From contig CAYSFB010000001.1 in NCBI GenBank assembly GCA_964430735.1, positions 232,674 through 296,673 on the forward strand: a stretch of 64,000 nucleotides of DNA. Reading direction: 5' to 3'. This stretch comes from an uncultured Planctomycetia bacterium. Lineage in GTDB: Bacteria; Omnitrophota; Gorgyraeia; 2-02-FULL-51-18; JAGOUK01. Both the position numbers and the translations under genes were made by a program. The notes beneath the pieces are model-generated. The model had not been told where the DNA came from, searched no databases, and saw nothing but the letters and a program-made list of their open reading frames with translations. Positions 1,832-43,197 of the stretch are shown here, one piece after another; within the stretch, counting starts at the first letter, position 1; each line of letters opens with the position of its first letter.

Positions 1832-2518
1832 TCAGCCGCGGGCCTTGACCCGCGGATACAGTTGAACCACGGGGTCCGATTGCCAGAACTGCTTCGTCTC
1901 GACGTCCATCAAGGTCAGCCGGCCGCTCCAGCCGGCCCCCGTATCGAGCATCCACAGATTTGCCAGATTCAAGGGCTGATCCGTTCCGAACTTGAGCGTC
2001 GGCGTATGACCCACATAAATTTCTTGGTAAGCACCAATCCGGCCCCCGCCGCCGAGAGCCAGGTTCTTGGCCGTTTCGACAAGCGAGCGGTCCCATGCCA
2101 GCTCTTTAAGACTGTGCTCGCCGAGCGGCCGTTCCGGATCAAACCCGCCGTGCACAAACAGCCGCCCCGCTTCCTCCAGGTAAGACCGGCCCGCCGACAA
2201 GAACTCGATATGCGCCGCCGGCATCGGCTTGCCGCCGTAGGCCTTGATCGTGTTGCGTCCGCCTTCGGCCAGCCACATCTCCGGCTTGAGACCCTCCCGG
2301 GCCCAGCCCAGAGCCCACAAATCGTGATTCCCCGTAATGAGCTCCAGCCGGGGAAGCCCGCGCAACTCATCGATGCAGGCCTTCACATCCGGATACCCGT
2401 CGCAGATATCCCCCAGCGCGATCAGCCGGTCGGCTTGGCGGTCAAAGCCCGACCGCTCCAAACACTGCAACAGCGCCTTGTGCGCTCCGTGTAAATCGCC
2501 AAGGACAAAGGTCTTCAT
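1832..2518 (-). CDS. metallophosphoesterase (Ser/Thr phosphatase / ApaH-like)
   Basis: MKTFVLGDLHGAHKA...GDICDGYPD...GNHD motifs. Trimmed from the track's 2746 to ATG 2518. Confidence 0.8.
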   Translation of the reverse strand: MKTFVLGDLHGAHKALLQCLERSGFDRQADRLIALGDICDGYPDVKACIDELRGLPRLELITGNHDLWALGWAREGLKPEMWLAEGGRNTIKAYGGKPMPAAHIEFLSAGRSYLEEAGRLFVHGGFDPERPLGEHSLKELAWDRSLVETAKNLALGGGGRIGAYQEIYVGHTPTLKFGTDQPLNLANLWMLDTGAGWSGRLTLMDVETKQFWQSDPVVQLYPRVKARG

Positions 2519-2522
2519 CGGA

Positions 2523-2903
2523 TTACGAGTTTTCTTTGGCGTGTAACTGAATGAGCTCGAGCAGATAAGGCCTGTCTTCTTCGGACAAGGATTCGAATTC
2601 GGCTCCGATTTCGTAGATTCTTTCGGACCCACCGATCCATGCGCACCAGCGGATGCGCACCGAAGCGGCGATATCGCGGCGGAGCGTGTGGAGACGGACC
2701 GGATAGACCTCACCCGGATCGAGCCGGACGGAAGTTCTGAAGCCAATGCCGCACTCCGAAAGATCCGTGATGTTGAGCACGAGAGGACCTTGAGGCAATC
2801 CCTTGGTATCGATCCGGATCAGGTTGACCGCGGCGACTCTCAGGTGCCGCCTCCGATGGTCCGTACCCGCTTCGATATCCAGGAACCAGTTTTTGATACT
2901 CAT
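2523..2903 (-). CDS. PilZ domain protein (c-di-GMP receptor candidate)
   Basis: RRRHLR (RxxxR) and DLSECGIGF (D/NxSxxG) PilZ motifs. Its ATG overlaps the TGA of the upstream priming GT (ATGA at 2900-2903). Confidence 0.75.
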   Translation of the reverse strand: MSIKNWFLDIEAGTDHRRRHLRVAAVNLIRIDTKGLPQGPLVLNITDLSECGIGFRTSVRLDPGEVYPVRLHTLRRDIAASVRIRWCAWIGGSERIYEIGAEFESLSEEDRPYLLELIQLHAKENS

Positions 2904-4042
2904 ATTTGACCGCCGATCTTATGTGAACCCGACGCGCTCATCTCGCCCGAATGGCGGGCGGAATGATACTCCAGGATGGCGATGATCATCAGCAGCATGC
3001 AGTAGATGGCCACAATGATCGCATTGCCCTTCAGCGATGCGATTTGCGTCGAAAGAACCCCGATGAGTCCGGTCGTGATTCCGACCATGTAAGAGAAAAA
3101 AACCGCGTCGTTTCCGTCCAGACCCATCCGGATCAGCCGGTGCGCGAAGTGGTTGCGGTCCCCGCGCCAGGGCGGCAGCCCGCGGTACAGCCGCACGCAA
3201 ACCACGCTCACAAAATCGTAAATCGGAACGCCGAATATGAAGAGAGGGACAAAGGGCGTGAGCGATACGGGCTGCAGAATCCGGTAGGTCGCCTGCAGCG
3301 AAGCGACCGCCATCATATACCCCAGGAACAGGCTTCCGTTGTCGCCCAGGAACGCCTTGGCCTTGTTAAAATTGTACGGCAAAAATCCGAGGATGGCGCC
3401 GCCGAGAATCACCATCATGATCCCCAGAATCGGCTGGTACATCGCCTGCGAGATCAAAAAAAACGCCCCGCATGCGATAAACACGATCCCGGCGCAATGC
3501 CCGTTGATCGAGTCGATAAAATTAAACGCGTTGAGCAGCAGGACGATCCAGAACACCGTGATGACACGGCCGAACGGACCCAGGTCCAGCATGAACTCCG
3601 CGATAAAGCCGGATTGAACGAGATACGCAGCCACCAGGATTTGGCCCGCGAACTTGACCGACGGCTTCAGGGCAAATCGGTCGTCGATCAACCCCAAAAC
3701 GAGAATCATCACTCCACCCGCAAACATCGGGAGCATCTGGTCTTTGAAGCGCGCGTATTCCGTCAGAGTGGCGGTGCTGAAAAATGACAGAAACGTCCCC
3801 GAATACCCTTCCGAGTTCAGTATCAGCAGACAGGCCCCAAAAACGGCCCAAAACGCCGTAAAGATGGCCAGGCCGCCCAGATAGGGCGTGGGACCGGGAT
3901 GCAGCTTGATCTTGCCGGGGTAATCCAAAAATCCCACCCGGTGGGCCAGCTGGATGCACAGGGCGCTGCACACAAACGACAGGGTCATGGCGAGGCAAAA
4001 AAGCGCGCTCAAGGTTCCCAGAGAGCCATAGGACGACGTCAT
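2900..4042 (-). CDS. WecA/MraY-family polyprenol-phosphate sugar-1-phosphate transferase (glycosyltransferase family 4 priming enzyme)
   Basis: Polytopic membrane protein with the LDYPGKIKLHPGPTPYLGGLAIF motif of WecA/WbpL-type enzymes. Confidence 0.85.
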   Translation of the reverse strand: MTSSYGSLGTLSALFCLAMTLSFVCSALCIQLAHRVGFLDYPGKIKLHPGPTPYLGGLAIFTAFWAVFGACLLILNSEGYSGTFLSFFSTATLTEYARFKDQMLPMFAGGVMILVLGLIDDRFALKPSVKFAGQILVAAYLVQSGFIAEFMLDLGPFGRVITVFWIVLLLNAFNFIDSINGHCAGIVFIACGAFFLISQAMYQPILGIMMVILGGAILGFLPYNFNKAKAFLGDNGSLFLGYMMAVASLQATYRILQPVSLTPFVPLFIFGVPIYDFVSVVCVRLYRGLPPWRGDRNHFAHRLIRMGLDGNDAVFFSYMVGITTGLIGVLSTQIASLKGNAIIVAIYCMLLMIIAILEYHSARHSGEMSASGSHKIGGQI

Positions 4043-6003
4043 GGCTGCCTCCCGTCTTCCGGATGTTCGTCCGAATACTTCTCCGCAACGGCGAGGTATT
4101 CCTTCCAGTATCTTCTCTGAGGCTCATTGCTCATCCGCACGTCCCGGATCTTGATTTTGGATGCGGTGGTAAGCCGCTTGATCGATTCGTACAATTCCCT
4201 GGCCCTCAGATTCCAGCGGTTGCGCCGAAGAAGCGAATCGGTGTTTTTGGCCTCAAAGACGTACATCAGCATGAGGTCGGCCTTGAATTTGATGTTCGGG
4301 CTCGACAGCTCAACAGCCCGTTCCATCAGTTCGAGAGCCTGCTCGATGTTCCGCTGCGCGTAAAGAATCTGGCCCTGCAGATAATAGTACGGACCGTATT
4401 CAGGCATGAGGTTCAACGCCCGGTCCGCGGCCTGCTCCGCCTGCCCCAGCATCTCCCGTCGGGTGACAAGGTCCTTGGAGCGCGTGGCGGTCCGCAACAA
4501 CTCTCCGGCATAGGCGCTCCAACGCTCCGGATTGTGCGCGTCGACCCGGGTCAGGATCTGCAGGGTCTCAAGCTTGCTCGTGTTCAGTATTTTAGCGCGG
4601 TAGATCTGCAGTTGAAATACGGTTTCTACCCCCAAGGTGGCGATCAGCGCCGCGAGGATGCAGGCGATCACCGGAGTTCTCAGCAGGGGTTTTTCGGTGG
4701 CGGCGGGGTACCGACCGGCGGACGGGCGCTCCTCCTGAATATAGGGGTCCCGCGACCGCGCGAGCAGTCCCAGCTGCAGAACAAAATGCATGGCGACAAT
4801 CGGCACCCGAAGCAGCGAATCCGACAGCAGCATGAACCCGAACGGAATCAAAGCCAGAGCCGCCTGCGTCCGGATCATCCTCCGCTGCGAACCCGGCTGA
4901 TCGCCATTCGGCTTGAGCAGAGGCGGCACAATCAAAAAGCCCAGCATGAGCACGATCAAAACGGCTCCGACCACCCCCGCCTCGGTCAGCAGATCCAGAT
5001 AGCTGCTGTGCGCATGCTCGTAATGCCCCCAGGAATTGATCACATCGCCGACCACTGTCTCATAGGCGGGCGAAACAAACCCGAACATTCCCATCCCCCA
5101 CCCGAACAAAGGCTGTTCAACAAAGATTCTAAAATTGGTTTGAGCCAGGGACAAGCGAAGCAGAATGGACTGCTGTATGGCTTCGGCATCAAAAGCACCG
5201 CGCCACTCAGGCCCCAGATACCGGCTGCCCGCGTAAACGGCGGCAATCCCGCCGCCCGCGACCACGAGCATGATGCCTTTGAACTTGCGGAATCCGCCGA
5301 CCAATAGGACCAGGATGTAAAAAACCGTCATGACAATCAGGGCAAAACGGGCTCCGGACCAGATAAGTCCCGCCGTCAGCACGAGAGCCGACAGACCCAG
5401 CAATAAGGAAACGCCGGAGAACTTCCGCCGGAACAGGAGAGCGAAGACGATCGGAAGCGTCAGGGCCGCATAGGCCCCGTAGGCGTTTTCGTAATAAAAC
5501 ACGCCGAAGGATCGGGAAGAGATGGATGCCAGTTCCGTCCCCGCCAGGTTCCAGGTTCCGGAATACCGGTGCGCCAAACCCGACGCGGTCCCGAACAATC
5601 CGATCATCAAGCCGCCGATCAGAAGCCGGAACATCCGCTTGGGCCGCGAAAGAATCGGCAACAACGTCACCCCGAAGGCGCAAAACCCGATCCAGGCCAC
5701 GAAGGCCCTATAAATCGGGGCGTGTCCCGACCGAATGGCCGTGGTCAAAACATAAAAGGCGAAGAGGCACCCGATCAATAATGCGATCAGAATATGGGAG
5801 GGATACTCGTCTTTGGCCTTGCGGGGCGAGAGGAAGCTGATTTGCAGAGCGAGAGCAAGTATCAGGAGGGGCGGCAATAAGGCGTTGGCCCATTGAGGAG
5901 ATCCGCTCGAGGCGTACAGGCCTGCGAACAGGGCCATCCATACCGCCGCTTCATGGAGATTTCGACGCGTGATCGCGTTGTCAAAAGCCGCTGCCGGAGA
6001 CAT
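4039..6003 (-). CDS. O-antigen-ligase-like (Wzy_C) polytopic membrane protein with C-terminal TPR domain
   Basis: About 10-12 TM segments; NSWGHYEHAHSSYLDLLTEAGVVG matches the Wzy_C/O-antigen-ligase motif. C-terminal roughly 200 aa are soluble TPR-like helices. Start overlaps upstream stop by 4 nt. Confidence 0.7.
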   Translation of the reverse strand: MSPAAAFDNAITRRNLHEAAVWMALFAGLYASSGSPQWANALLPPLLILALALQISFLSPRKAKDEYPSHILIALLIGCLFAFYVLTTAIRSGHAPIYRAFVAWIGFCAFGVTLLPILSRPKRMFRLLIGGLMIGLFGTASGLAHRYSGTWNLAGTELASISSRSFGVFYYENAYGAYAALTLPIVFALLFRRKFSGVSLLLGLSALVLTAGLIWSGARFALIVMTVFYILVLLVGGFRKFKGIMLVVAGGGIAAVYAGSRYLGPEWRGAFDAEAIQQSILLRLSLAQTNFRIFVEQPLFGWGMGMFGFVSPAYETVVGDVINSWGHYEHAHSSYLDLLTEAGVVGAVLIVLMLGFLIVPPLLKPNGDQPGSQRRMIRTQAALALIPFGFMLLSDSLLRVPIVAMHFVLQLGLLARSRDPYIQEERPSAGRYPAATEKPLLRTPVIACILAALIATLGVETVFQLQIYRAKILNTSKLETLQILTRVDAHNPERWSAYAGELLRTATRSKDLVTRREMLGQAEQAADRALNLMPEYGPYYYLQGQILYAQRNIEQALELMERAVELSSPNIKFKADLMLMYVFEAKNTDSLLRRNRWNLRARELYESIKRLTTASKIKIRDVRMSNEPQRRYWKEYLAVAEKYSDEHPEDGRQP

Positions 6004-7823
6004 TACCGGTCGGTTTTTGAATTCCGAGAGTAGTAGTGGTACCCCTGATAATAATCCCGGTTCAGAGTCGTCATACGGTTCAAGATCGTTCCGTAGAGAA
6101 TGGTGTTCATCAGCTTCAGTTTTTCAATCGCCCGCATCAGCACTTTGCGCTTCAGCATCCCGCAGCCGACGACAAAGAGGGTTCCGTGCATTTTCTGGGA
6201 AATGATCGCGGCTTCCGGAATGCTGAGGAAAGGAGGCGAATCAAAAATGATCCGCTCGTACTTCGATTCGACCGCTTTGATCAGCTCGTCAAACGTCTTT
6301 GAAGTGAACAATCCTTCGGGATTTTTGGAAGCGGTGCCTGCGGAGATGATGTCGACGTTGGGCTGGCCGATGATGGGGCGGATGATCTGCTGAAGGGTCG
6401 CCGCGCCGGTCAAATAATCGGCCAAGCCCGGGGCCGACGGATCCGCGAGATCCAAGCGTCCGGTGAGCCCGGGTCTGCGGATATCGGCCTCAACCAGAAG
6501 GATCCGCTGCTCCGGCAGCCGCTCCGCCGCTCCTTTGCCGGCACCCAGATTCGCCATCGTAAACGCCAGGAGGGCGCTGATGGATGACTTCCCTTCCCCG
6601 GGTATGCAGCTCGTGATCATGATGAGCTTGTTCCGATCCTTGGGCATCGAAAAAATAAACGCCGTATGCAGCATGGCCATCGAGTCCCGGACGGCCTGAA
6701 CGTTCAGAAGATCTTCAAATTTTTCGGACTTGCAGACCTTCGAGTCGATGACGGGCATATGCCCCAGATACGGGACATTCACCATTCTCGCGAGGTCCTC
6801 CTCGCTGTTCACCGTCACGACCAGCGCGCCCATGAACATGATGAACATAAAAGAAACTATGATCCCCGCGGCGCCGAAGACCAAAACGAGCTTGGTGCGG
6901 TTCGGAGCAAAGGGCTCGTCCGCGGGCTTGGCCCGTTCAAAGATGCTCATGTTGGTGGACTTGAACTCGCTGGCGAGGTTCCGCTTGAGGCCGGCGACCA
7001 CACCGGCGGTCTCGATCTTGGTCTGCTGTTCGTTGTGCTCAATCTGGCGGAGCATTTCGATCACGGCGGGATTTTCGTCCGTGTACCGGGTCTTGAGCTG
7101 CGCGAGTTCGCTGTTCAGCCGCAATTTTTCGCGTTTGAGCTCTTGGATCGTCGGATTGTCCTGTACGCTCGGAAGACTTTCGATAAAATACGGATCGGCC
7201 ATTTTTTCCATCAGAACCGTCGGATCCGATTCCGCGCCGCCGGGAAGCAGCTTCAGCAGCTCCTGATTGCTCCTGAGACTCTGACGAAGACTCTCCTCAA
7301 TAAAGTTCTCGGCGGTCGCATTCGCGAGCTTGGACGCCCACACGGCATCGCCGTCATCCACTTGAATGTAAAAAATATTGGTTTTTTTGTACTGGAAGGA
7401 GCGGGTGTTTGCCTGCAAAAGGCCGGCTGCCTGCTGGTCGGTTGCCACGGCATAGTGGGTCTTGGCGTCCGTATCCTTCGCCGCCTGGAGGAGCACGGGC
7501 ATGCTGGTCGCTATGGCGATCTGCGTGTCAATCAGCCCCCTCACCTCGCCCGACATATTGCCGCTGATCGCTTCTCGATAGGTCGTGGTCTGTGTTTTGG
7601 CGTTGTCGACAAGGATGCTGGCGGAGGACTGATATCGGTCTTTGAGCGCGGAGGCGTAAAAAATTCCGAGGAGAACGAAGGCAAAAACAATAGTGGCGAC
7701 ATACCAGCGGTACCGCATGAACGATTCCGCGAGTTGAATAATCCCGGTTATCTCGCCCGAATCACCTTCATGTGATCCGTGATGCGGGTGATGCTCGGCG
7801 CCCCCGCTGTTCACGTTCAACAC
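6003..7823 (-). CDS. wzc: polysaccharide co-polymerase / BY-kinase (Wzc-like tyrosine autokinase)
   Basis: N-terminal TM followed by a periplasmic coiled-coil, second TM, Walker A CIPGEGKSSISALLA, ILLVEADIRRPG, and a C-terminal Tyr cluster YYQGYHYYSRN. GTG start at 7823; His-rich N-terminus. Confidence 0.85.
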   Translation of the reverse strand: MLNVNSGGAEHHPHHGSHEGDSGEITGIIQLAESFMRYRWYVATIVFAFVLLGIFYASALKDRYQSSASILVDNAKTQTTTYREAISGNMSGEVRGLIDTQIAIATSMPVLLQAAKDTDAKTHYAVATDQQAAGLLQANTRSFQYKKTNIFYIQVDDGDAVWASKLANATAENFIEESLRQSLRSNQELLKLLPGGAESDPTVLMEKMADPYFIESLPSVQDNPTIQELKREKLRLNSELAQLKTRYTDENPAVIEMLRQIEHNEQQTKIETAGVVAGLKRNLASEFKSTNMSIFERAKPADEPFAPNRTKLVLVFGAAGIIVSFMFIMFMGALVVTVNSEEDLARMVNVPYLGHMPVIDSKVCKSEKFEDLLNVQAVRDSMAMLHTAFIFSMPKDRNKLIMITSCIPGEGKSSISALLAFTMANLGAGKGAAERLPEQRILLVEADIRRPGLTGRLDLADPSAPGLADYLTGAATLQQIIRPIIGQPNVDIISAGTASKNPEGLFTSKTFDELIKAVESKYERIIFDSPPFLSIPEAAIISQKMHGTLFVVGCGMLKRKVLMRAIEKLKLMNTILYGTILNRMTTLNRDYYQGYHYYSRNSKTDR

Positions 7824-21458: not shown

Positions 21459-22577
21459 TCAGACCTTCAAGAGGTCTTTCATTTTTTTCATGAACGAATG
21501 CGAAATCGGATGGGCCTTCTCGCCCGAAATTTCTGCGAATTGCTGCAGAAGCTCCTTCTGCTTGGAGCTCAACGCGGTCGGCGTCTCGACGACGACGCGA
21601 ACATGCTCGTCGCCGCGCCCGTCGCCCTTGATCGAGTGAATCCCCTTGCCCTTGAGGCGGAACACCTTGCCGGTCTGCGTGCCCGCCGGGACCTTGAGCT
21701 CGGTCGGACCTTCGAGCGTCGGGACTTTGATCTCGGCACCCAATGCGGCCTGCGCGAAGCTGATCGGCACGTCGCACAGGATGTCCGACCCGCTGCGTTT
21801 AAAAATCTCGTGCTCGTCGACGTGGATGTCCACGTAAAGGTCGCCCCGGTGGCCGCCTTTATGCCCTGCCTCGCCCTCGCCGGACACGCGCAGCCGCATC
21901 CCCGAATCCACGCCAGCCGGAACCTTGACCGTGATGGTCCGCTCAGTCGACTCGCGTCCGGAACCGCGGCAGGAACCGCAGGGTTTTTCGATGATCGACC
22001 CCTGCCCCGCGCAGGACGGACAGGGCCGGCGGATCTGAAAAAATCCGCTCGACGCCAGGACTTCCCCGGCGCCGCGGCAGGTCGTACAAACTTTTTTCTG
22101 GGTTCCGGGAGCGGCGCCCTGGCCGGCGCAGGTGCGGCAGACTTCTTCACGGCGGACGGGAACTTTTTTATCGCAACCATGGACGGCTTCCAAAAATGTG
22201 AGCTCCAGCTCGACGCCCAGGTCCGCGCCGCGCGCGGCGCGCTGGGTGCGGTGCTGGCCGCCGCGGCCGCCGCCGAAAAAGTCTTCGAAGATGTCCGAAA
22301 AAACGTCCGAAAAACCTTCCGCCCCTCCCGCGCCGCCGAACCCGGCTCCGCCGTTCACGCCGTCCATTCCGTAGCGGTCGTACGCCGCGCGCTTTTCGGG
22401 ATCCGAGAGGATCTCGTAGGCGCGGGAGTACTCTTTGAACTTTTCCTCGGCGTGTTTGTCGCCGGGGTTGCGGTCCGGATGGTGTTTGAGCGCGTGCTTG
22501 CGGAACGCGCTCTTGATCTCTTCGGCCGAAGCCGTCTTGGCGACGCCGAACAGAACGTACAAATCCTGAGTGGACAT
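21459..22577 (-). CDS. dnaJ: chaperone DnaJ
   Basis: J-domain HPD, G/F region, four CxxCxGxG zinc-finger repeats, and a C-terminal domain. Confidence 0.95.
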   Translation of the reverse strand: MSTQDLYVLFGVAKTASAEEIKSAFRKHALKHHPDRNPGDKHAEEKFKEYSRAYEILSDPEKRAAYDRYGMDGVNGGAGFGGAGGAEGFSDVFSDIFEDFFGGGRGGQHRTQRAARGADLGVELELTFLEAVHGCDKKVPVRREEVCRTCAGQGAAPGTQKKVCTTCRGAGEVLASSGFFQIRRPCPSCAGQGSIIEKPCGSCRGSGRESTERTITVKVPAGVDSGMRLRVSGEGEAGHKGGHRGDLYVDIHVDEHEIFKRSGSDILCDVPISFAQAALGAEIKVPTLEGPTELKVPAGTQTGKVFRLKGKGIHSIKGDGRGDEHVRVVVETPTALSSKQKELLQQFAEISGEKAHPISHSFMKKMKDLLKV

Positions 22578-22634
22578 ATCTGCCTATCTTATTGAAAAAC
22601 TGTTAAACCTAAAGATTCTAAAAAAACTTAACCA

Positions 22635-22756
22635 CAGTTCGTTCAAAAAGCCGCATATGCGAGGCGCCGGCGATGCGACCGCGGAGGCGTAGCAGCGCTA
22701 CGCCGCACAAGGGAGCGAGCCGGCAACGAAGCAGATGCGGCTTTTTCAACGAACTG
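22635..22756. repeat. 122-bp nested palindromic element (22-bp terminal inverted repeats around a GC-rich core), copy A
   Basis: CAGTTCGTTCAAAAAGCCGCAT...(78 nt)...ATGCGGCTTTTTCAACGAACTG with 21/22 arm complementarity. Inner hairpin GGCGTAGCagcGCTACGCC. Abuts the dnaK stop codon. Confidence 0.6.
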
Positions 22757-24673
<1,917 letters not shown>

Positions 24674-26079: not shown

Positions 26080-26106
26080 TTAGCACTCTTGACTGTCGAG
26101 TGCCAG
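26080..26106. promoter_or_regulatory. CIRCE operator 1 (TTAGCACTC-N9-GAGTGCCAG)
   Basis: Left arm perfect, right arm 7/9 to the CIRCE consensus TTAGCACTC-N9-GAGTGCTAA. Lies just downstream of the predicted -10 of hrcA. Confidence 0.7.
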
Positions 26107-26110
26107 AGGT

Positions 26111-26138
26111 AGTTTATCACGAGGGAAAAAGTTGTCAA
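26111..26138 (-). promoter_or_regulatory. hrcA promoter TTGACA-16-TAAACT (TG-extended -10)
   Basis: Minus-strand reading gives caacTTGACAactttttccctcgTGaTAAACTacct; positioned between the two CIRCE elements. Confidence 0.45.
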
Positions 26139-26142
26139 GTTG

Positions 26143-26169
26143 CTGGCACTCCAAAAAGTGGAGTGCTAG
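26143..26169. promoter_or_regulatory. CIRCE operator 2 (CTGGCACTC-N9-GAGTGCTAG)
   Basis: 7/9 and 8/9 arm matches to CIRCE. Lies immediately upstream of the -35 and overlaps the hflX stop codon. Confidence 0.6.
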
Positions 26170-34141: not shown

Positions 34142-35569
34142 TTAGAACCCCGTCTGGACCTTGTACTTGAGCGTCGTGCTGGAATTCGCCGGCACCGTCA
34201 CTTCGAACCGCACGTTGAAGGCGTCCAGCTTCTTGTAAGGGATCGACGAACTCAAAATCTTCCAATTGGTCCCCAGCGGCTCGTCCACGAGCACCGTCAC
34301 CGGCACATCCTTCGCATTCTTCAGCGTGATCTCCCACTCGGATTCGTTCATCCGCGTCGTCAGCTGCTGGAAGCTCATCTGTTTGCGCTTGAAGTTGACG
34401 TCAAACGCGCGGCCGACATTGAGCTTGAGCTCATCGTCCTTGGGCGTATGCTGGATCCTGTCCTCGCCCACGAACTGCAGCCCGCCCTCCTTGTCTTCCT
34501 TGTACATCCGGATGATGCCCGCCGGCAGCGGAAGCCCGAGACCGTTGGTCTTGGCGTTGAGGAAGCGGATCGACACGTTCACCGGCTGCGGCTGGTCGTT
34601 GCCGGACCACTGCTGCATGAAAAAGTAATTCTCCGACCGGACCGTGTATTCCTTTTGGAGCTTGAGCGGCGTCGACGGCAGGAAGCTGATCTGCTTGGTC
34701 TGATTGTTCTTGAGCGTCGTCCGGCGCTTCAGGTCGTACGTGTGGTATTCGAACATCGCCTGCTCCGAGAACTGCGCCGCGCCCGCGTCCATCGCCATGA
34801 CGCCGCGCATCATCATCGCCTTGGGCGCGTATTCGGGCGCCGACACGCGGTTGACGTCCCCCGCGACGAGCTTGAGCTTGGCGTTTTTGTAAGTCGCGCC
34901 GGTGTTGTTGTCGATCGTGACCCAACCGGACAATTCGCCCGCCGCGTCGTCCTTGCCGACCGTGAGCACGTAGTCGGCCTTCCAGCCGAAGCCGTTCGTG
35001 AGATAGGTCGCCTCGACTTCGTGCGCGGCGGCCGACTGGTTCTTGTACTGCCAGGTGAGCGTGGGCTTGGTGATGAGGTCTTCGGGGATCTCGGGCAGGA
35101 CGTGATAGCCCGGATGCCCGATCCAGATGTTGTCGTTGATCTTGTAGACGCGCTGACCCGCCGTGGACAAGAGCGTCGCGGTCACCTGCTCCTTGCGGTC
35201 CTGGAACTCGTTCTCGGTGAGGATCTGGATGTCCTTGCCGATGTATTTTTCGAGGAGCTTTTCGGGATCGATGAGGTCGTATTCGTAGTTCTGCTCGATC
35301 AGGGCGAGTCCGGCGGGCTGGTTGAGCGACTTCACGCGCACCGTCTCGGGCTGCACAAGCTGCGCGACGTCCATGAACCGCAGCTCCCCTTCACCGACCG
35401 GGAGAAGGATCGTCCGGGTGTCCTTGATGAGCCCCAGCTGATTGTTGTAAACGGTGACTTGGAGGTTTTTTTGGTCGGCTAGCGTCGAACTCTGCGTTTC
35501 GCCGGCGATTGCCGTCGAAGCGGCCGTCAAAAAAGTCAGGAACGAAAAAAGCGGGGGGTTTTTCATCAA
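34142..35569 (-). CDS. DUF4139/DUF4140 family secreted protein (MuiA-like)
   Basis: Signal peptide MMKNPPLFSFLTFLTAASTAIAG; length and composition match the conserved DUF4139 family. TATAAT and GGAGG elements lie upstream. Confidence 0.6.
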   Translation of the reverse strand: MMKNPPLFSFLTFLTAASTAIAGETQSSTLADQKNLQVTVYNNQLGLIKDTRTILLPVGEGELRFMDVAQLVQPETVRVKSLNQPAGLALIEQNYEYDLIDPEKLLEKYIGKDIQILTENEFQDRKEQVTATLLSTAGQRVYKINDNIWIGHPGYHVLPEIPEDLITKPTLTWQYKNQSAAAHEVEATYLTNGFGWKADYVLTVGKDDAAGELSGWVTIDNNTGATYKNAKLKLVAGDVNRVSAPEYAPKAMMMRGVMAMDAGAAQFSEQAMFEYHTYDLKRRTTLKNNQTKQISFLPSTPLKLQKEYTVRSENYFFMQQWSGNDQPQPVNVSIRFLNAKTNGLGLPLPAGIIRMYKEDKEGGLQFVGEDRIQHTPKDDELKLNVGRAFDVNFKRKQMSFQQLTTRMNESEWEITLKNAKDVPVTVLVDEPLGTNWKILSSSIPYKKLDAFNVRFEVTVPANSSTTLKYKVQTGF

Positions 35570-35748
35570 AGGCCTCCGTGGTGAAGCGCTATTATAAACG
35601 ATTCTCCCCCATTAGACGCCCCCAACCCCTACAAGGTTTAGTCCCTAGACCGAGCGCCGCCCCAGCGGCGTAACTCCCCCACACGAGCGCCGCGTGCAAC
35701 GCGGCGTACGCAAAAAAACCGATTCCCAATATGCCCCAACTCAGGCCC

Positions 35749-35856
35749 ATTTTTTCCAAATAACAGGTTCAGATGCAAGGCGCGAGGGAGCGCCGCGCAC
35801 TCTACGGTGCGCAAGCTCCCGAGCAACGCAGCAGATGAGCCTGTTATTTGGAAAAA
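35749..35856. repeat. 108-bp nested palindromic element (18-bp perfect terminal inverted repeats), copy B
   Basis: TTTTTTCCAAATAACAGG...(72 nt)...CCTGTTATTTGGAAAAAA. The core has nested hairpins GGGAGC.../GCGCACcgtagaGTGCGC and the motif GCAACGCAGCAGATG shared with copy A. Ends 1 nt from the tRNA-Lys 3' end. Confidence 0.6.
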
Positions 35857-35857
35857 A

Positions 35858-35933
35858 TGGTGAGACCGCTGGGGATCGAACCCAGGACACCTTCCTTAAA
35901 AGGGAAGTGCTCTACCAACTGAGCTACGGTCTC
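35858..35933 (-). tRNA. tRNA-Lys (anticodon UUU), CCA encoded
   Basis: Minus-strand sequence GAGACCGTAGCTCAGTTGGTAGAGCACTTCCCTTTTAAGGAAGGTGTCCTGGGTTCGATCCCCAGCGGTCTCACCA folds as a canonical cloverleaf: 7-bp acceptor, GCTC/GAGC D-stem, CTTCC/GGAAG anticodon stem, loop CTTTTAA, TTCGATC T-loop. Confidence 0.9.
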
Positions 35934-35991
35934 GTGAAGATTGCGCGGGCCGTTCGAGGCCCGATCGGGCGGGGCGAAAAACAGGTCCGGA

Positions 35992-36549
35992 CTAGACGGT
36001 CATCAATTCCTTTTCCTTGGCCGTCGCAAGTTCGTCGACCGCCTTGGTCTGCGCGTCGGTGGCCTTCTGGATCATGTCCTCAGCCTTCTTGCGGTCGTCT
36101 TCGGTGATCTTCTTGTCCTTCTCGAGCTTCTTGATCTCTTCGTTGCCTTCGCGGCGGGCGTTGCGGATCGAGACACGGCCGTCTTCGGCGACTTTTTTGA
36201 CGACCTTCACGAGTTCTTCGCGGCGTTCCTTGGACAGCGCCGGCACGGGCACGCGGATCATTTTGCCTTCGATGATCGGGGTCAATCCCAGATCCCCCGA
36301 CTGGATGGCCTGACCGATGGCCGCGACGCTTCCCGCGTCGAACGGCTGGATGACCATCATCCGGGGTTCCGGCGCGCTGATCGTCGCCAGCTGCTTCAGG
36401 GGGGTCATGGCCCCGTAGTAATCGACGCGCAGCGTATCGAGCAGGGACGGGTTGGCGCGGCCGGTGCGCAGGCGCGCGAATTCGTGAACGGTCGCTTCGA
36501 CCGCCTTTTTCATTTTGGACTCAAAATTTTTGACCGTATCCTGCCACAT
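35992..36549 (-). CDS. frr: ribosome recycling factor
   Basis: MWQDTVKNFE... 185 aa, AAGGAG RBS. The track ORF extends artificially to 37029. Confidence 0.95.
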   Translation of the reverse strand: MWQDTVKNFESKMKKAVEATVHEFARLRTGRANPSLLDTLRVDYYGAMTPLKQLATISAPEPRMMVIQPFDAGSVAAIGQAIQSGDLGLTPIIEGKMIRVPVPALSKERREELVKVVKKVAEDGRVSIRNARREGNEEIKKLEKDKKITEDDRKKAEDMIQKATDAQTKAVDELATAKEKELMTV

Positions 36550-41715: not shown

Positions 41716-42838
41716 CGGAAAAAAAATCCTGATCATCACCGGCGAAGCGTCCGGCGACCAGCTCGGCGCCGCGCTTGCCGTTTCGCTCCGGGAGATCGAT
41801 CCGGCCGTCCGGCTGCACGGCGTCGGCGGCTCCAAGATGGAAGCGCTCCGCCTGGACAGCTTCCGGTCGAGCGGAACCTCGCACGCCACGGGACTCACCG
41901 AAGTGCTCAAGCATCTGCCCGAATACTTCCGGCTGTTCCAACAGATCCTCGAAGACATCCGCACGATCCGTCCCGACCTCATCGTTCTGGTCGACAACCC
42001 CGGCTTCAACCTGCGCCTCGCCAAAAAATTGCTGCCGTCCGGAATTCCCGTCGTCGGCTACGTCTCCCCCCAGGTCTGGGCCTGGAAGGAAGGCCGGACC
42101 CGGACGATGGCCAAAGTTTTCAAAAAAGTCCTGACGCTGTTCGACTTCGAAGAGGATTTTTTGGAAAAGCGCGGCGTGAAGGCCAAGTGGGTGGGACATC
42201 CGATCGTCGAAGCCTGGCCGGCCGACCCGGGCCGCGCCCCCGAGCGGGATGCCGCTCCGGCGCAACGAATCCTGCTCCTGCCGGGCTCGCGTCCGCACGA
42301 AGTCCGGAAGCTCCTCCCGGTCATGCTGGAAGCCGCCGGGCGTATTTCCAAAAAATATCCGGACATCCGGTGGTCGCTCCTGGAAGCCGACACGCTGCCC
42401 GACGCTTTTTACGCGCCTCTTTTGGCCCCGGCTGCCGGCCCCCGCCTCGAACGCGTCCGCGGCGGCGACAAGCAAAAGCTTTTTCTAAAGTCCGACCTGG
42501 CCTGGGCCTGCTCCGGCACCGTCACGCTCGAATGCGCGCTCGCCCAGCTCCCCAGCATCATCGGCTACCGCACCTCCACAATCACCGTCGTCATCGCCCG
42601 CTTCCTGGTGAAGGTCAAATATCTCGGCATGCCCAACCTCCTGGCCGGCAAAGAAATCATGCCCGAACTCCTCCAAGAAAAATTCACCCCGGAAAATCTA
42701 GAGTCCCTGACGCTGAACTGGCTCCAAAACCCCTCCGCCCTCGCCCTCTCCCGCTCTTCTCTCTCGTCCATCCGCCCCCACCTAGGCGCCCCCGGCTCTG
42801 CGCAGCGCGCCGCCCACGAACTCCTCTCGCTCATCTGA
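41696..42838 (+). CDS. lpxB: lipid-A-disaccharide synthase
   Basis: KKILIITGEASGDQLGAALAVSLRE N-terminal motif and GT-B fold. Start tentatively the TTG at 41696, a 20-nt overlap with the oxidoreductase; the track maximum is 41630. Confidence 0.8.
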   Translation: MKKSPSDGKKILIITGEASGDQLGAALAVSLREIDPAVRLHGVGGSKMEALRLDSFRSSGTSHATGLTEVLKHLPEYFRLFQQILEDIRTIRPDLIVLVDNPGFNLRLAKKLLPSGIPVVGYVSPQVWAWKEGRTRTMAKVFKKVLTLFDFEEDFLEKRGVKAKWVGHPIVEAWPADPGRAPERDAAPAQRILLLPGSRPHEVRKLLPVMLEAAGRISKKYPDIRWSLLEADTLPDAFYAPLLAPAAGPRLERVRGGDKQKLFLKSDLAWACSGTVTLECALAQLPSIIGYRTSTITVVIARFLVKVKYLGMPNLLAGKEIMPELLQEKFTPENLESLTLNWLQNPSALALSRSSLSSIRPHLGAPGSAQRAAHELLSLI

Positions 42839-42842
42839 CCCA

Positions 42843-42993
42843 AGGACGCCCTGCGGCAGATGCAGGTCTTCTACGAACAGAGCCGCTCGCGCGCTGTCAA
42901 AGACTAGGCGCGCTTGCTCCTTGCTCCTCCTCGGCGGGGACGCCTCGTCGGAGCAAAAGTTCTACGAAGACCTACATCTGCCGCAGGGCGTCC
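42843..42993. repeat. 151-bp nested palindromic unit 1 (about 35-bp imperfect terminal inverted repeats)
   Basis: AGGACGCCCTGCGGCAGATGCAGGTCTTCTACGAAC ... GTTCTACGAAGACCTACATCTGCCGCAGGGCGTCCT. Interior holds GCGCGC...GCGCGC, TTGCTCC...GGAGCAA and the 23-mer CCTCGGCGGGGACGCCTCGTCGG. Begins 5 nt after the lpxB stop. Confidence 0.6.
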
Positions 42994-43025
42994 TAAATCT
43001 ATTCGCTTGAACGCAGTTGCTGGGT

Positions 43026-43176
43026 GCCCGCAGGGAGGAAGCGGTATGGCTTCGAAGGGCTTTTTGTCCGACGAGGCGTCCCCGCCGAGGAGGACAAATG
43101 GAGCGGGCGCGCCTCGTCTTAGACAGCGCGCCCGCGGCTATGCCCGGAAAAGCCATGCTGCTTCCTCCCTGCGGGC
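43026..43176. repeat. 151-bp nested palindromic unit 2 (17-bp perfect terminal inverted repeats), with interior similar to the reverse complement of unit 1
   Basis: GCCCGCAGGGAGGAAGC...GCTTCCTCCCTGCGGGC. Interior holds CCGACGAGGCGTCCCCGCCGAGG (exact reverse complement of the unit-1 23-mer) and GCGCGCctcgtcttagacaGCGCGC (about 85% to the reverse complement of the unit-1 counterpart). Ends 22 nt before the glnA stop. Confidence 0.6.
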
Positions 43177-43197
43177 AAACCGATCAACGAAGAGAAA

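Follow-up and report, generated by a model that had tools for sequence, protein, structure and literature searches.

The DNA analysed here, called the window throughout, is a 64,000-nt stretch of contig CAYSFB010000001.1 from an uncultured bacterium, and its sole tRNA gene is tRNA-Lys(UUU) on the minus strand. Directly against the CCA end of this gene stands a long palindromic hairpin, copy A, which is the subject of this report together with a second hairpin in the dnaK-dnaJ spacer, copy B, and the dispersed family to which both belong. An earlier note on this DNA had described an 18-bp perfect inverted repeat around a 72-nt core with nested stems. Both are real: the arm TTTTTTCCAAATAACAGG occurs in the window once and once more as its reverse complement, 0 of 100 shuffles gave a match, and the stems GGGAGC/GCTCCC and GCGCAC..GTGCGC are both part of the predicted fold. 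The coordinates given there (35749-35856) were one base too low, and the single nucleotide said to separate the repeat from the tRNA CCA is absent. The gap is zero, and pairing runs on into the CCA (35858-60, TGG on the + strand), which pairs with CCA at 35747-49 to form a helix of 21 contiguous pairs. The parts of the locus are as follows; all those within the core come from the predicted fold.

35858-35933, minus strand: tRNA-Lys(UUU) gene (ARAGORN; Rfam tRNA, 72 bits), with the encoded CCA at 35860..35858.
35750-35767, + strand: left arm of copy A, TTTTTTCCAAATAACAGG, read from the sequence.
35768-35839, + strand: core of copy A (short type), 72 nt, from the fold and an exact match to the two family motifs.
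Start of the core, + strand: UU.
35770-76, + strand: CAGAUGC.
35777-81, + strand: AAGGC, 5' side of an internal loop.
35782-83, + strand: GC.
35784-91, + strand: P2, GAGGGAGC.
35795-35812, + strand: P3 hairpin, GCGCACU-CUAC-GGUGCGC.
35815-22, + strand: P2', GCUCCCGA.
35823-24, + strand: GC.
35825-30, + strand: AACGCA, 3' side of the internal loop.
35831-37, + strand: GCAGAUG, followed by AG.
35840-35857, + strand: right arm of copy A, CCTGTTATTTGGAAAAAA, read from the sequence, directly abutting the tRNA CCA.

As RNA, the 114-nt element of copy A has a predicted folding energy of -72.0 kcal/mol (z = -11.8) for the + strand and of -65.2 kcal/mol (z = -9.9) for the - strand, and 0 of 200 shuffles equalled either value. 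The better-folding + strand is antisense to tRNA-Lys. A 93-aa open reading frame (ORF) is called reading through the element. A terminator scan of 35450-36050 returned 0 sites, and beyond the hairpin, where the sequence is UGGGCCUGAG, there is no U-tract on either strand; the plain termination structure that the earlier note had offered as an alternative does not fit these results. The related explanation that copy A evolved in place as a terminator or 3'-processing structure of tRNA-Lys, and resembles the dnaK-dnaJ hairpin by convergence, is very improbable. It has in its favour that the hairpin starts exactly at the CCA, that the dnaK-dnaJ spacers of relatives also carry hairpins and that a distant relative (L124, below) has a plain terminator hairpin at the site, but it does not account for the missing U-tract, for a better-folding, constrained strand that is antisense to the tRNA, or for 24 specified bases that fit a pattern occurring away from tRNAs in more than 20 phyla.

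That pattern was built on the two core motifs of the family, ATGCRAGGCGC and GCAACGMAGCAGATG. The first is common to copy A (at 35773) and copy B (at 22657), and the 15-nt motif that the earlier note had seen in both hairpins is confirmed as GCAACGCAGCAGATG at 35823-35837 and GCAACGAAGCAGATG at 22723-22737. The search pattern, ATGCNAGGCGC-N(30-60)-GCAACGNAGCAGATG, has 24 specified bases and was scanned through GTDB at one genome per species (596 Gb), where we estimate its chance expectation at about 0.1 in the whole collection. It finds at least 120 stretches of genome, spread over more than 20 phyla, so that the dispersed repeat family suggested on the strength of the dnaK-dnaJ element does exist. 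The matches come from Omnitrophota, Kiritimatiellae, Verrucomicrobia, many Desulfobacterota, Acidobacteriota, Rokubacteria, Methylomirabilota, Nitrospiria, Gemmatimonadota, Planctomycetota, Chlamydiae, Elusimicrobia, Bdellovibrionota, Bacteroidales, several Firmicutes orders, Spirochaetes, the candidate phyla radiation (Kaiserbacteria, Saccharibacteria) and Alpha-, Beta- and Gammaproteobacteria, including two cultured Pseudomonas. Genomic loci collected for comparison are numbered with the prefix L. A covariance model, R1, was built on 115 distinct members. Run on 679 kb of loci, it recovers about 14 further copies beyond the strict pattern, and by pattern and model alike the window holds exactly two copies. 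Several contigs of one metagenome-assembled genome may carry copies (e.g., SMAG_U11850, CAXYUZ01, CAZYDG01, WC_9), and four lie within 8 kb in L048. The elements measure 110-190 bp, and their core lengths are bimodal, at 62-66 nt (the class of copy A) and 80-85 nt (the class of copy B). The core of copy A is 81-82% identical to those of the Omnitrophota copies L020 and L031. No conserved ORF was found in the core; a small ORF starting at the core ATG was considered and dropped because core lengths between 62 and 85 nt are not multiples of three and fall out of frame.

The family appears in none of the catalogues that we searched. At the gathering threshold, Rfam 15 finds only tRNA in the window and 18 other loci, and permissive Rfam searches of copies A and B gave only chance-level microRNA and small RNA matches. 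K-turn, loop E, hammerhead, twister and domain IV of the signal recognition particle RNA were compared by eye and none fits, in agreement with Rfam where a model exists. Among about 8 million papers searched, none of relevance contains the exact core or arm strings, and concept searches for MITE (miniature inverted-repeat transposable element) families gave no match, Chunjie differing by its 9-bp direct repeats. By blastn the family is also absent from 5,426 E. coli genomes.

Copy B has the following features.

22634-22757, + strand: copy B (long type) in the dnaK-dnaJ spacer, from the two-motif pattern, the fold and model R1.
22634-22653 and 22738-22757, + strand: arms of copy B, of the common TTCAAAAA/TTTTTCAA type with a C·C mismatch.
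22654-22737, + strand: core of copy B, from pattern and fold.
22587-22603, + strand: putative degenerate outer left terminal repeat of copy B, cttaTTGAAAAActg, a weak assignment made only by analogy with full-length members.

The right end of copy B overlaps the dnaK stop codon (22757-22759), and the element is antisense to both dnaK and dnaJ. A terminator scan of this spacer found one terminator-like site (22462-22478), which is outside copy B and within shuffle range. The arms of copies A and B are quite different and the order of their parts is identical; both have the full set of family features, namely a long closing stem, CAGAUG/CAGAUG, the loop, the clamp and an inner stem-loop. Model R1 scores copy B at 90.2 bits and copy A at 60.6 bits, each having been in its training alignment.

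The family is defined by its conserved internal core and not by conserved ends. Its cores fold as a single rod in 112 of 118 cases. Read on the + strand from the outside, the rod begins with a variable outer stem, often TCAAAAA...TTTTTGA, which in about half of the copies is interrupted 8-10 bp outside the core by a non-Watson-Crick position (C·C in 27, G·A in 20). Inward of this come 4-6 freely covarying base pairs, then CAGAUG paired with CAGAUG through tandem G·A and a C:G pair, then a 5x6-nt internal loop, 5'-RAGGC / 5'-AACGMA, which is invariant among pattern members, and finally a GC:GC clamp and variable inner stems again broken by G·A pairs. Copies outside the strict pattern show by their variation which of these parts matter: Watson-Crick pairs can stand in for the tandem G·A (L093, L122) and the clamp covaries from GC:GC to GG:CC in L018, with RAGGC and AACG retained.

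The predicted pairing is strongly supported by covariation. In the 115-sequence alignment, 94.1% of pair cells are standard pairs as against 77.4% in shuffles, and 311 cells show changes on both sides as against 95. The covariation score is 0.451, compared with 0.142 in shuffles (0 of 500 as high) and at most 0.15 when partners are slid. The constraint also has a direction. G·U pairs outnumber A·C in the outer stem by 125 to 28, purine-purine mismatches are commoner than pyrimidine-pyrimidine ones, and the + orientation is the more stable in 108 of 115 members (means of -62.9 and -53.5 kcal/mol), which together indicate that the constrained form is a single strand, RNA or single-stranded DNA (ssDNA), in the + orientation. 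In the window this strand is antisense to tRNA-Lys, dnaK and dnaJ. Across the family, the 8-kb flanks, read in the + orientation of the element, show a negative GC skew at 64 of 101 loci (p = 0.009), and a rough ORF-based count of co-directional contexts gives 25 antisense and 16 sense copies, suggesting that the element tends to lie either antisense to genes or on the lagging strand, two possibilities that these counts do not separate.

A conserved strand-specific fold raises the question of an RNA gene. P. saudimassiliensis, P. nitroreducens and a third contig of Pseudomonas type each have one family copy in their orthologous purH-purD spacer, placed 9-20 nt past the purH stop and running antisense to the operon:

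L009, 7190-7312: Pseudomonas-type purH-purD copy.
L059, 1672-1795: Pseudomonas-type purH-purD copy.
L087, 1695-1818: Pseudomonas-type purH-purD copy.

Six of their 46 predicted pairs are compensated, only 3 of 138 cells are broken, and G·U pairs are conserved on the + strand. It could be proposed that the family is primarily a structured non-coding RNA gene or module, acting in trans or within a ribonucleoprotein, whose loop binds a protein or ligand; its MITE-like ends would then be a mere vehicle or a by-product of the closing stem, and copy A possibly a functional antisense RNA gene. The strand-specific G·U and G·A pairs with their strong covariation, the loop nucleotides that are invariant across more than 20 phyla and the compensation of orthologous single copies both in Pseudomonas and in the clade of the window all agree with such a role, and a protein-binding face is suggested by the conserved non-Watson-Crick position, which lies one turn of the helix away from the tandem G·A. 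We nevertheless consider it unlikely. A consensus scan found no sigma-70-like promoter at copy A or copy B, and neither has a terminator; copies lie in both orientations to genes, with at most a lean towards antisense; many are plainly in decay or coreless and yet have not been removed; no Rfam family matches; and the putative target-site duplications and the empty site described next are marks of DNA mobility.

The family is mobile. Its terminal inverted repeats are 15-25 nt long and differ between subfamilies, and at least 14 copies have identical flanks of 4-5 nt, mostly CTAG, CTAA, TTAG or CTAN. Examples, with the flank in each case at the outer side of the element, are:

L075: left CTAG before TGTCCTGACACAG, right CTAG after GGACA.
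L100: left CTAG before CCCGC, right CTAG after GCGGG.
L062: left CTAAG, right CTAAG.
L008, L102 and L115: left CTAA before CAG, right CTAA after CTG.
L096: left CTAC, right CTAC.
L010: left CTAT, right CTAT.
L104: left TTAG, right TTAG.
L058: left AGGT before TGATG, right AGGT after CATCA.
L045: left AAAT, right AAAT.
L094: left AATT, right AATT.
L090: left AGAAT, right AGAAT.

Two Porticoccaceae genomes with 92-94% identity allow a filled and an empty site to be compared: L078 has a 142-bp element (4919-5060) that is precisely missing from the otherwise collinear L103 (~6711-6713), the filled site being flanked by GTAA and ACAA and the empty site reading GTAA. In Desulfobacterota subfamilies the left end is doubled, an outer repeat lying about 10 nt from an inner copy, and it is the inner copy that forms the stem with the right end. 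Left-truncated copies without the outer repeat exist, as do decayed, minimal, solo-arm and nested copies and copies that have lost the inner stems or the whole core. Two further observations concern single loci. In L042 (5372-5563) and L081 (6214-6374) an extra GC-rich hairpin (GCCTGCCCCCGCGAAAGCGGGGGAGGC) is nested within the element and may be a second small repeat that inserted into the first. In L027 (~2149-2292) the flanking direct repeat is about 29 nt long (AAATAAGACTATTTTGGGG.CTA.ACCT), far beyond the usual 4 bp.

We conclude that copy A is probably the relic of a non-autonomous, MITE-like mobile palindromic element of 110-190 bp, from a family that is in no database or paper searched. 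The MITE-like part of the earlier note's proposal therefore stands; its suggestion that the element targeted the tRNA flank does not, since a tRNA lies within ~200 nt of the element in only 1 of 60 family loci scanned. Transposases of the IS5 group of insertion sequences (IS) produce 4-bp duplications with a CTAR preference. The family would have spread by cut-and-paste or copy-paste transposition through a DDE transposase acting in trans, and an IS5-group enzyme would fit the YTAR-like 4-bp duplications. The core may be needed in cis as a single-stranded structure, RNA or ssDNA, to which some factor binds, or such a structure may be under selection for another reason.

A different route would be RNA-mediated. 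The family could be a hairpin retroelement resembling the short interspersed elements (SINEs), the loop of its + strand RNA being recognised by a reverse transcriptase encoded elsewhere and the RNA being copied into staggered nicks. This would explain why the core is conserved and the arms covary freely, why G·U is tolerated on one strand, why differing terminal sequences share a 4-bp duplication, and also the longer duplications (5 and 7 nt, and ~29 nt in L027), the left-truncated copies without the outer repeat and the absence of a linked protein gene. We know of no bacterial precedent, however, and we regard this route as quite improbable: no reverse transcriptase gene is associated with the family, the elements have no A- or U-rich tail, duplications within subfamilies are a constant 4 bp with CTAR preference, as is typical of DDE transposases, and the extra outer left repeat of full-length copies resembles a transposase-binding end.

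Several results weigh against reading copy A and its family as a MITE-like transposon relic. No clean target-site duplication is found at copy A or copy B, and the arms of copy A are unlike those of any other family member. An automated scan for duplications in all copies, made with maximal hairpin extension, gave a weak signal, palindromic CTAG flanks having been absorbed into the stem, and the two flanks of L078 (GTAA/ACAA) agree at only 2 of 4 positions. Among 776 flanking ORFs no transposase, integrase or reverse transcriptase is enriched, only generic HAMP and ABC clusters; and a search of 0.9 Mb of loci for an autonomous element with matching ends, for split cores and for extra pairs of terminal inverted repeats found only decayed copies. 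The family is absent by blastn from the 72,556 plasmids of PLSDB and the 50,697 phages of INPHARED, and by core pattern from the 2.9 million viral contigs of IMG/VR. An ordinary DDE MITE conserves its ends and not its interior, and the reverse is seen here: the core loops do not vary, and the termini do (TG..CA, CAG..CTG, CCCG..CGGG, GGAAC..GTTCC). A purely double-stranded DNA mechanism leaves the G·U and G·A pairs on one strand unexplained, and the compensated purH-purD copies indicate selection on the structure in place, beyond transposition. The strand-specific conservation of the core could reflect a cis requirement of an unrecognised transposition mechanism, a host-factor site or an RNA function.

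A bolder possibility, which we put forward only tentatively, is that the core is a new class of structured module, RNA or folded ssDNA, whose invariant 5x6 loop and periodic G·A pairs bind a widespread protein or catalyse a reaction, and which either rides on several transposon lineages or directs a transposition that depends on structure and not on ends. Such a module would explain the varied ends, the fixed interior in more than 20 phyla and the compensated single copies at purH-purD and tRNA-Lys.

The history of copy A was followed in relatives by comparing the tRNA-Lys 3' flank, as the earlier note had proposed. The nearest named relatives of the window's DnaJ and Frr are Omnitrophota, at 58-64% identity.

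L122 (Frr 94% identical): copy A found in the same position.
L129 (the only metagenome match of arm plus core): copy A again in the same position.
L123 (Frr 85% identical): copy A reduced to its tRNA-proximal arm and CTCATCTG.
L124 (Frr 63% identical): an ordinary terminator hairpin instead.

The element is thus found intact, truncated or absent, and is not identical everywhere. L122 and L129 show compensatory changes, an arm T-A pair having become C-G and the tandem G·A Watson-Crick pairs, and the inner hairpin of L122 differs from that of copy A. The search for arms and core motif that had been suggested gave two different answers: the core motif is widespread, and the arms, searched in the window and in JGI metagenomes, have no further copy except at the orthologous locus (L129). 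The tRNA-Lys CCA is encoded in the window, L123 and L124 and absent in L122 (1740-1813) and L129 (6801-6874); as it is encoded in only some of these genomes, the 3-bp extension of the helix into the CCA is incidental. The best-supported history is that copy A was inherited vertically and has no specific relationship with tRNAs. Its position beside tRNA-Lys is then an accident of insertion, as the 1 in 60 loci near a tRNA and the lack of an att-like repeat indicate. The element may have inserted or become fixed just 3' of tRNA-Lys in the ancestor of a small Omnitrophota-related clade, and would afterwards have been inherited with compensatory changes and partly deleted in one lineage. Any present role of copy A would be at most passive, as a very stable 3'-trailer hairpin of the tRNA-Lys precursor.

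On one side of copy A is rpsB-tsf-pyrH-frr-tRNA; on the other lie DUF4139, CBS, Exo_endo_phos, MerR, HSP20 and a DnaJ-domain protein (Pfam DnaJ, DnaJ_C). The genes beyond copy A differ in every relative, which marks the site as a rearrangement breakpoint. In L122 a giant ORF of 11,549 residues is called beyond the tRNA-Lys element (2115-4684), where the window has DUF4139. About 40 nt from copy A, at 35684-35712, is a small GC hairpin, GCGCCGCG-TGCAA-CGCGGCG, the sole such hairpin in the window; it is kept in L122 although the spacer around it differs. The 3' ends of tRNA genes are classic integration sites, and the break in synteny here, with different genes beyond it in all relatives, would suit the idea that an integrative element, such as a genomic island or a phage, used the tRNA-Lys 3' end and left the hairpin as its footprint, as raised in the earlier note, or as its attachment site. 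This is hardly credible. As the note itself had stated, there is no integrase or transposase among the neighbouring genes, with no integrase within ~6 kb; the 25-nt tRNA-Lys 3' end has no second copy in the 64-kb window with up to 3 mismatches allowed; the structure is a palindrome and not a direct repeat of the tRNA end; and the other family members do not lie beside tRNAs.

Copy B is absent from the closest relative L125, which has a 58-nt spacer, and from L126 and L128. In L127 (DnaJ 82% identical) the dnaK-dnaJ spacer (~465-582) contains a perfect hairpin, AAAAAATCACAGATGCC...GGCATCTGTGATTTTTT, with arms of the copy B type and the core mostly gone. This appears to be a decayed ortholog of copy B that now resembles an ordinary attenuator hairpin.

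Compared with known systems, the family resembles bacterial MITEs in having terminal inverted repeats, short direct repeats at the flanks of many copies, multiple copies and a mixture of full-length, truncated and decayed forms. It differs in that each MITE family known so far is confined to one genus or family and defined by its ends, whereas here the ends vary and the core is conserved, in part down to the single base, across more than 20 phyla, with structure constrained on one strand only. Correia elements duplicate TA, and the duplication of the present family is 4 bp. Also, no parent insertion sequence with the same ends was found in the 0.9 Mb of loci. Bacterial MITEs such as Correia of Neisseria, Chunjie of Geobacter and Nezha of cyanobacteria are palindromic, non-coding, intergenic sequences of ~100-235 bp, whose transcripts fold into very stable hairpins and which can sit inside operons and overlap stop codons (PMC10969869, PMC3184786). 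Chunjie has 21-bp terminal inverted repeats and 9-bp duplications (PMC3184786), the latter again unlike the 4 bp seen here.

REP (repetitive extragenic palindromic)/REPIN elements with RAYT transposases and palindrome-associated elements derived from IS200/IS605 are similar in that dispersed intergenic hairpins act as a folded single strand, with an orientation bias and an enzyme supplied in trans. IS200/IS605 ends consist of two separate subterminal hairpins without terminal inverted repeats or duplications. REPs are lineage-specific and make no target duplication, while the present element is a single rod of 110-190 bp with duplications and no tag, and neither RAYT nor TnpA genes are enriched among the 776 flanking ORFs. 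REPs are 20-40 nt long and carry a GTAG or CGTC tag (PMC3733652).

Integron attC sites are likewise imperfect palindromes (~60-140 nt) that are used as a folded single strand, with fixed unpaired bases, variable terminal structure and a distribution over many phyla. However, their R''/R' boxes (RYYYAAC / GTTRRRY) are absent from the family consensus, whose AAC is in the 3' half and unpaired, and the family has no cassette arrays and no intI; its copies are solitary, occur in both orientations and have flanking duplications. Most members also resemble intrinsic bidirectional terminators in their outer stem, with an A-tract, a GC stem and a T-tract (TCAAAAA...TTTTTGA), and because they lie between genes they may well terminate or attenuate transcription. 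Terminators, unlike the family, have no conserved internal loops and no structured insert of 60-85 nt, and copy A has no trailing U-tract.

As a kind of element, small mobile palindromic repeats are already known. What sets this family apart is a conserved interior with varied ends, present in more than 20 phyla and kept as single orthologous copies by compensatory evolution. If true, one small structured module has spread or been retained, uncatalogued, in the intergenic DNA of most major bacterial phyla. The element would repeatedly cause contigs to break, and false ORF calls can arise from its copies; it would mark the tRNA-Lys synteny breakpoint and sit in core operons (dnaK-dnaJ, purH-purD), where it would probably affect transcript processing. 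The reversal of the MITE pattern would point to recognition of the folded single strand by a partner acting in trans, be it a host factor, a transposase or a reverse transcriptase. Since the hosts include cultured bacteria (Pseudomonas nitroreducens, P. saudimassiliensis and Desulforhopalus sp. IMCC35007), the question is directly testable.

Two other features of the window deserve mention. Positions 42843-43177 hold nested long inverted repeats with arms of 28-66 nt, including GGCAGATGCAGG / CCTACATCTGCC, and the string CTAGGCGC occurs at 42782 and 42904, in or near this nest. The family covariance model does not score these repeats, which are probably palindromic elements of other kinds that have inserted into each other. 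Upstream of grpE-dnaK-dnaJ, at 26081-26168, stand two tandem operators, TAGCACTC-N9-GAGTGCC... and ...GGCACTC-N9-GAGTGCTA, that resemble CIRCE (controlling inverted repeat of chaperone expression), the usual element of HrcA heat-shock control.

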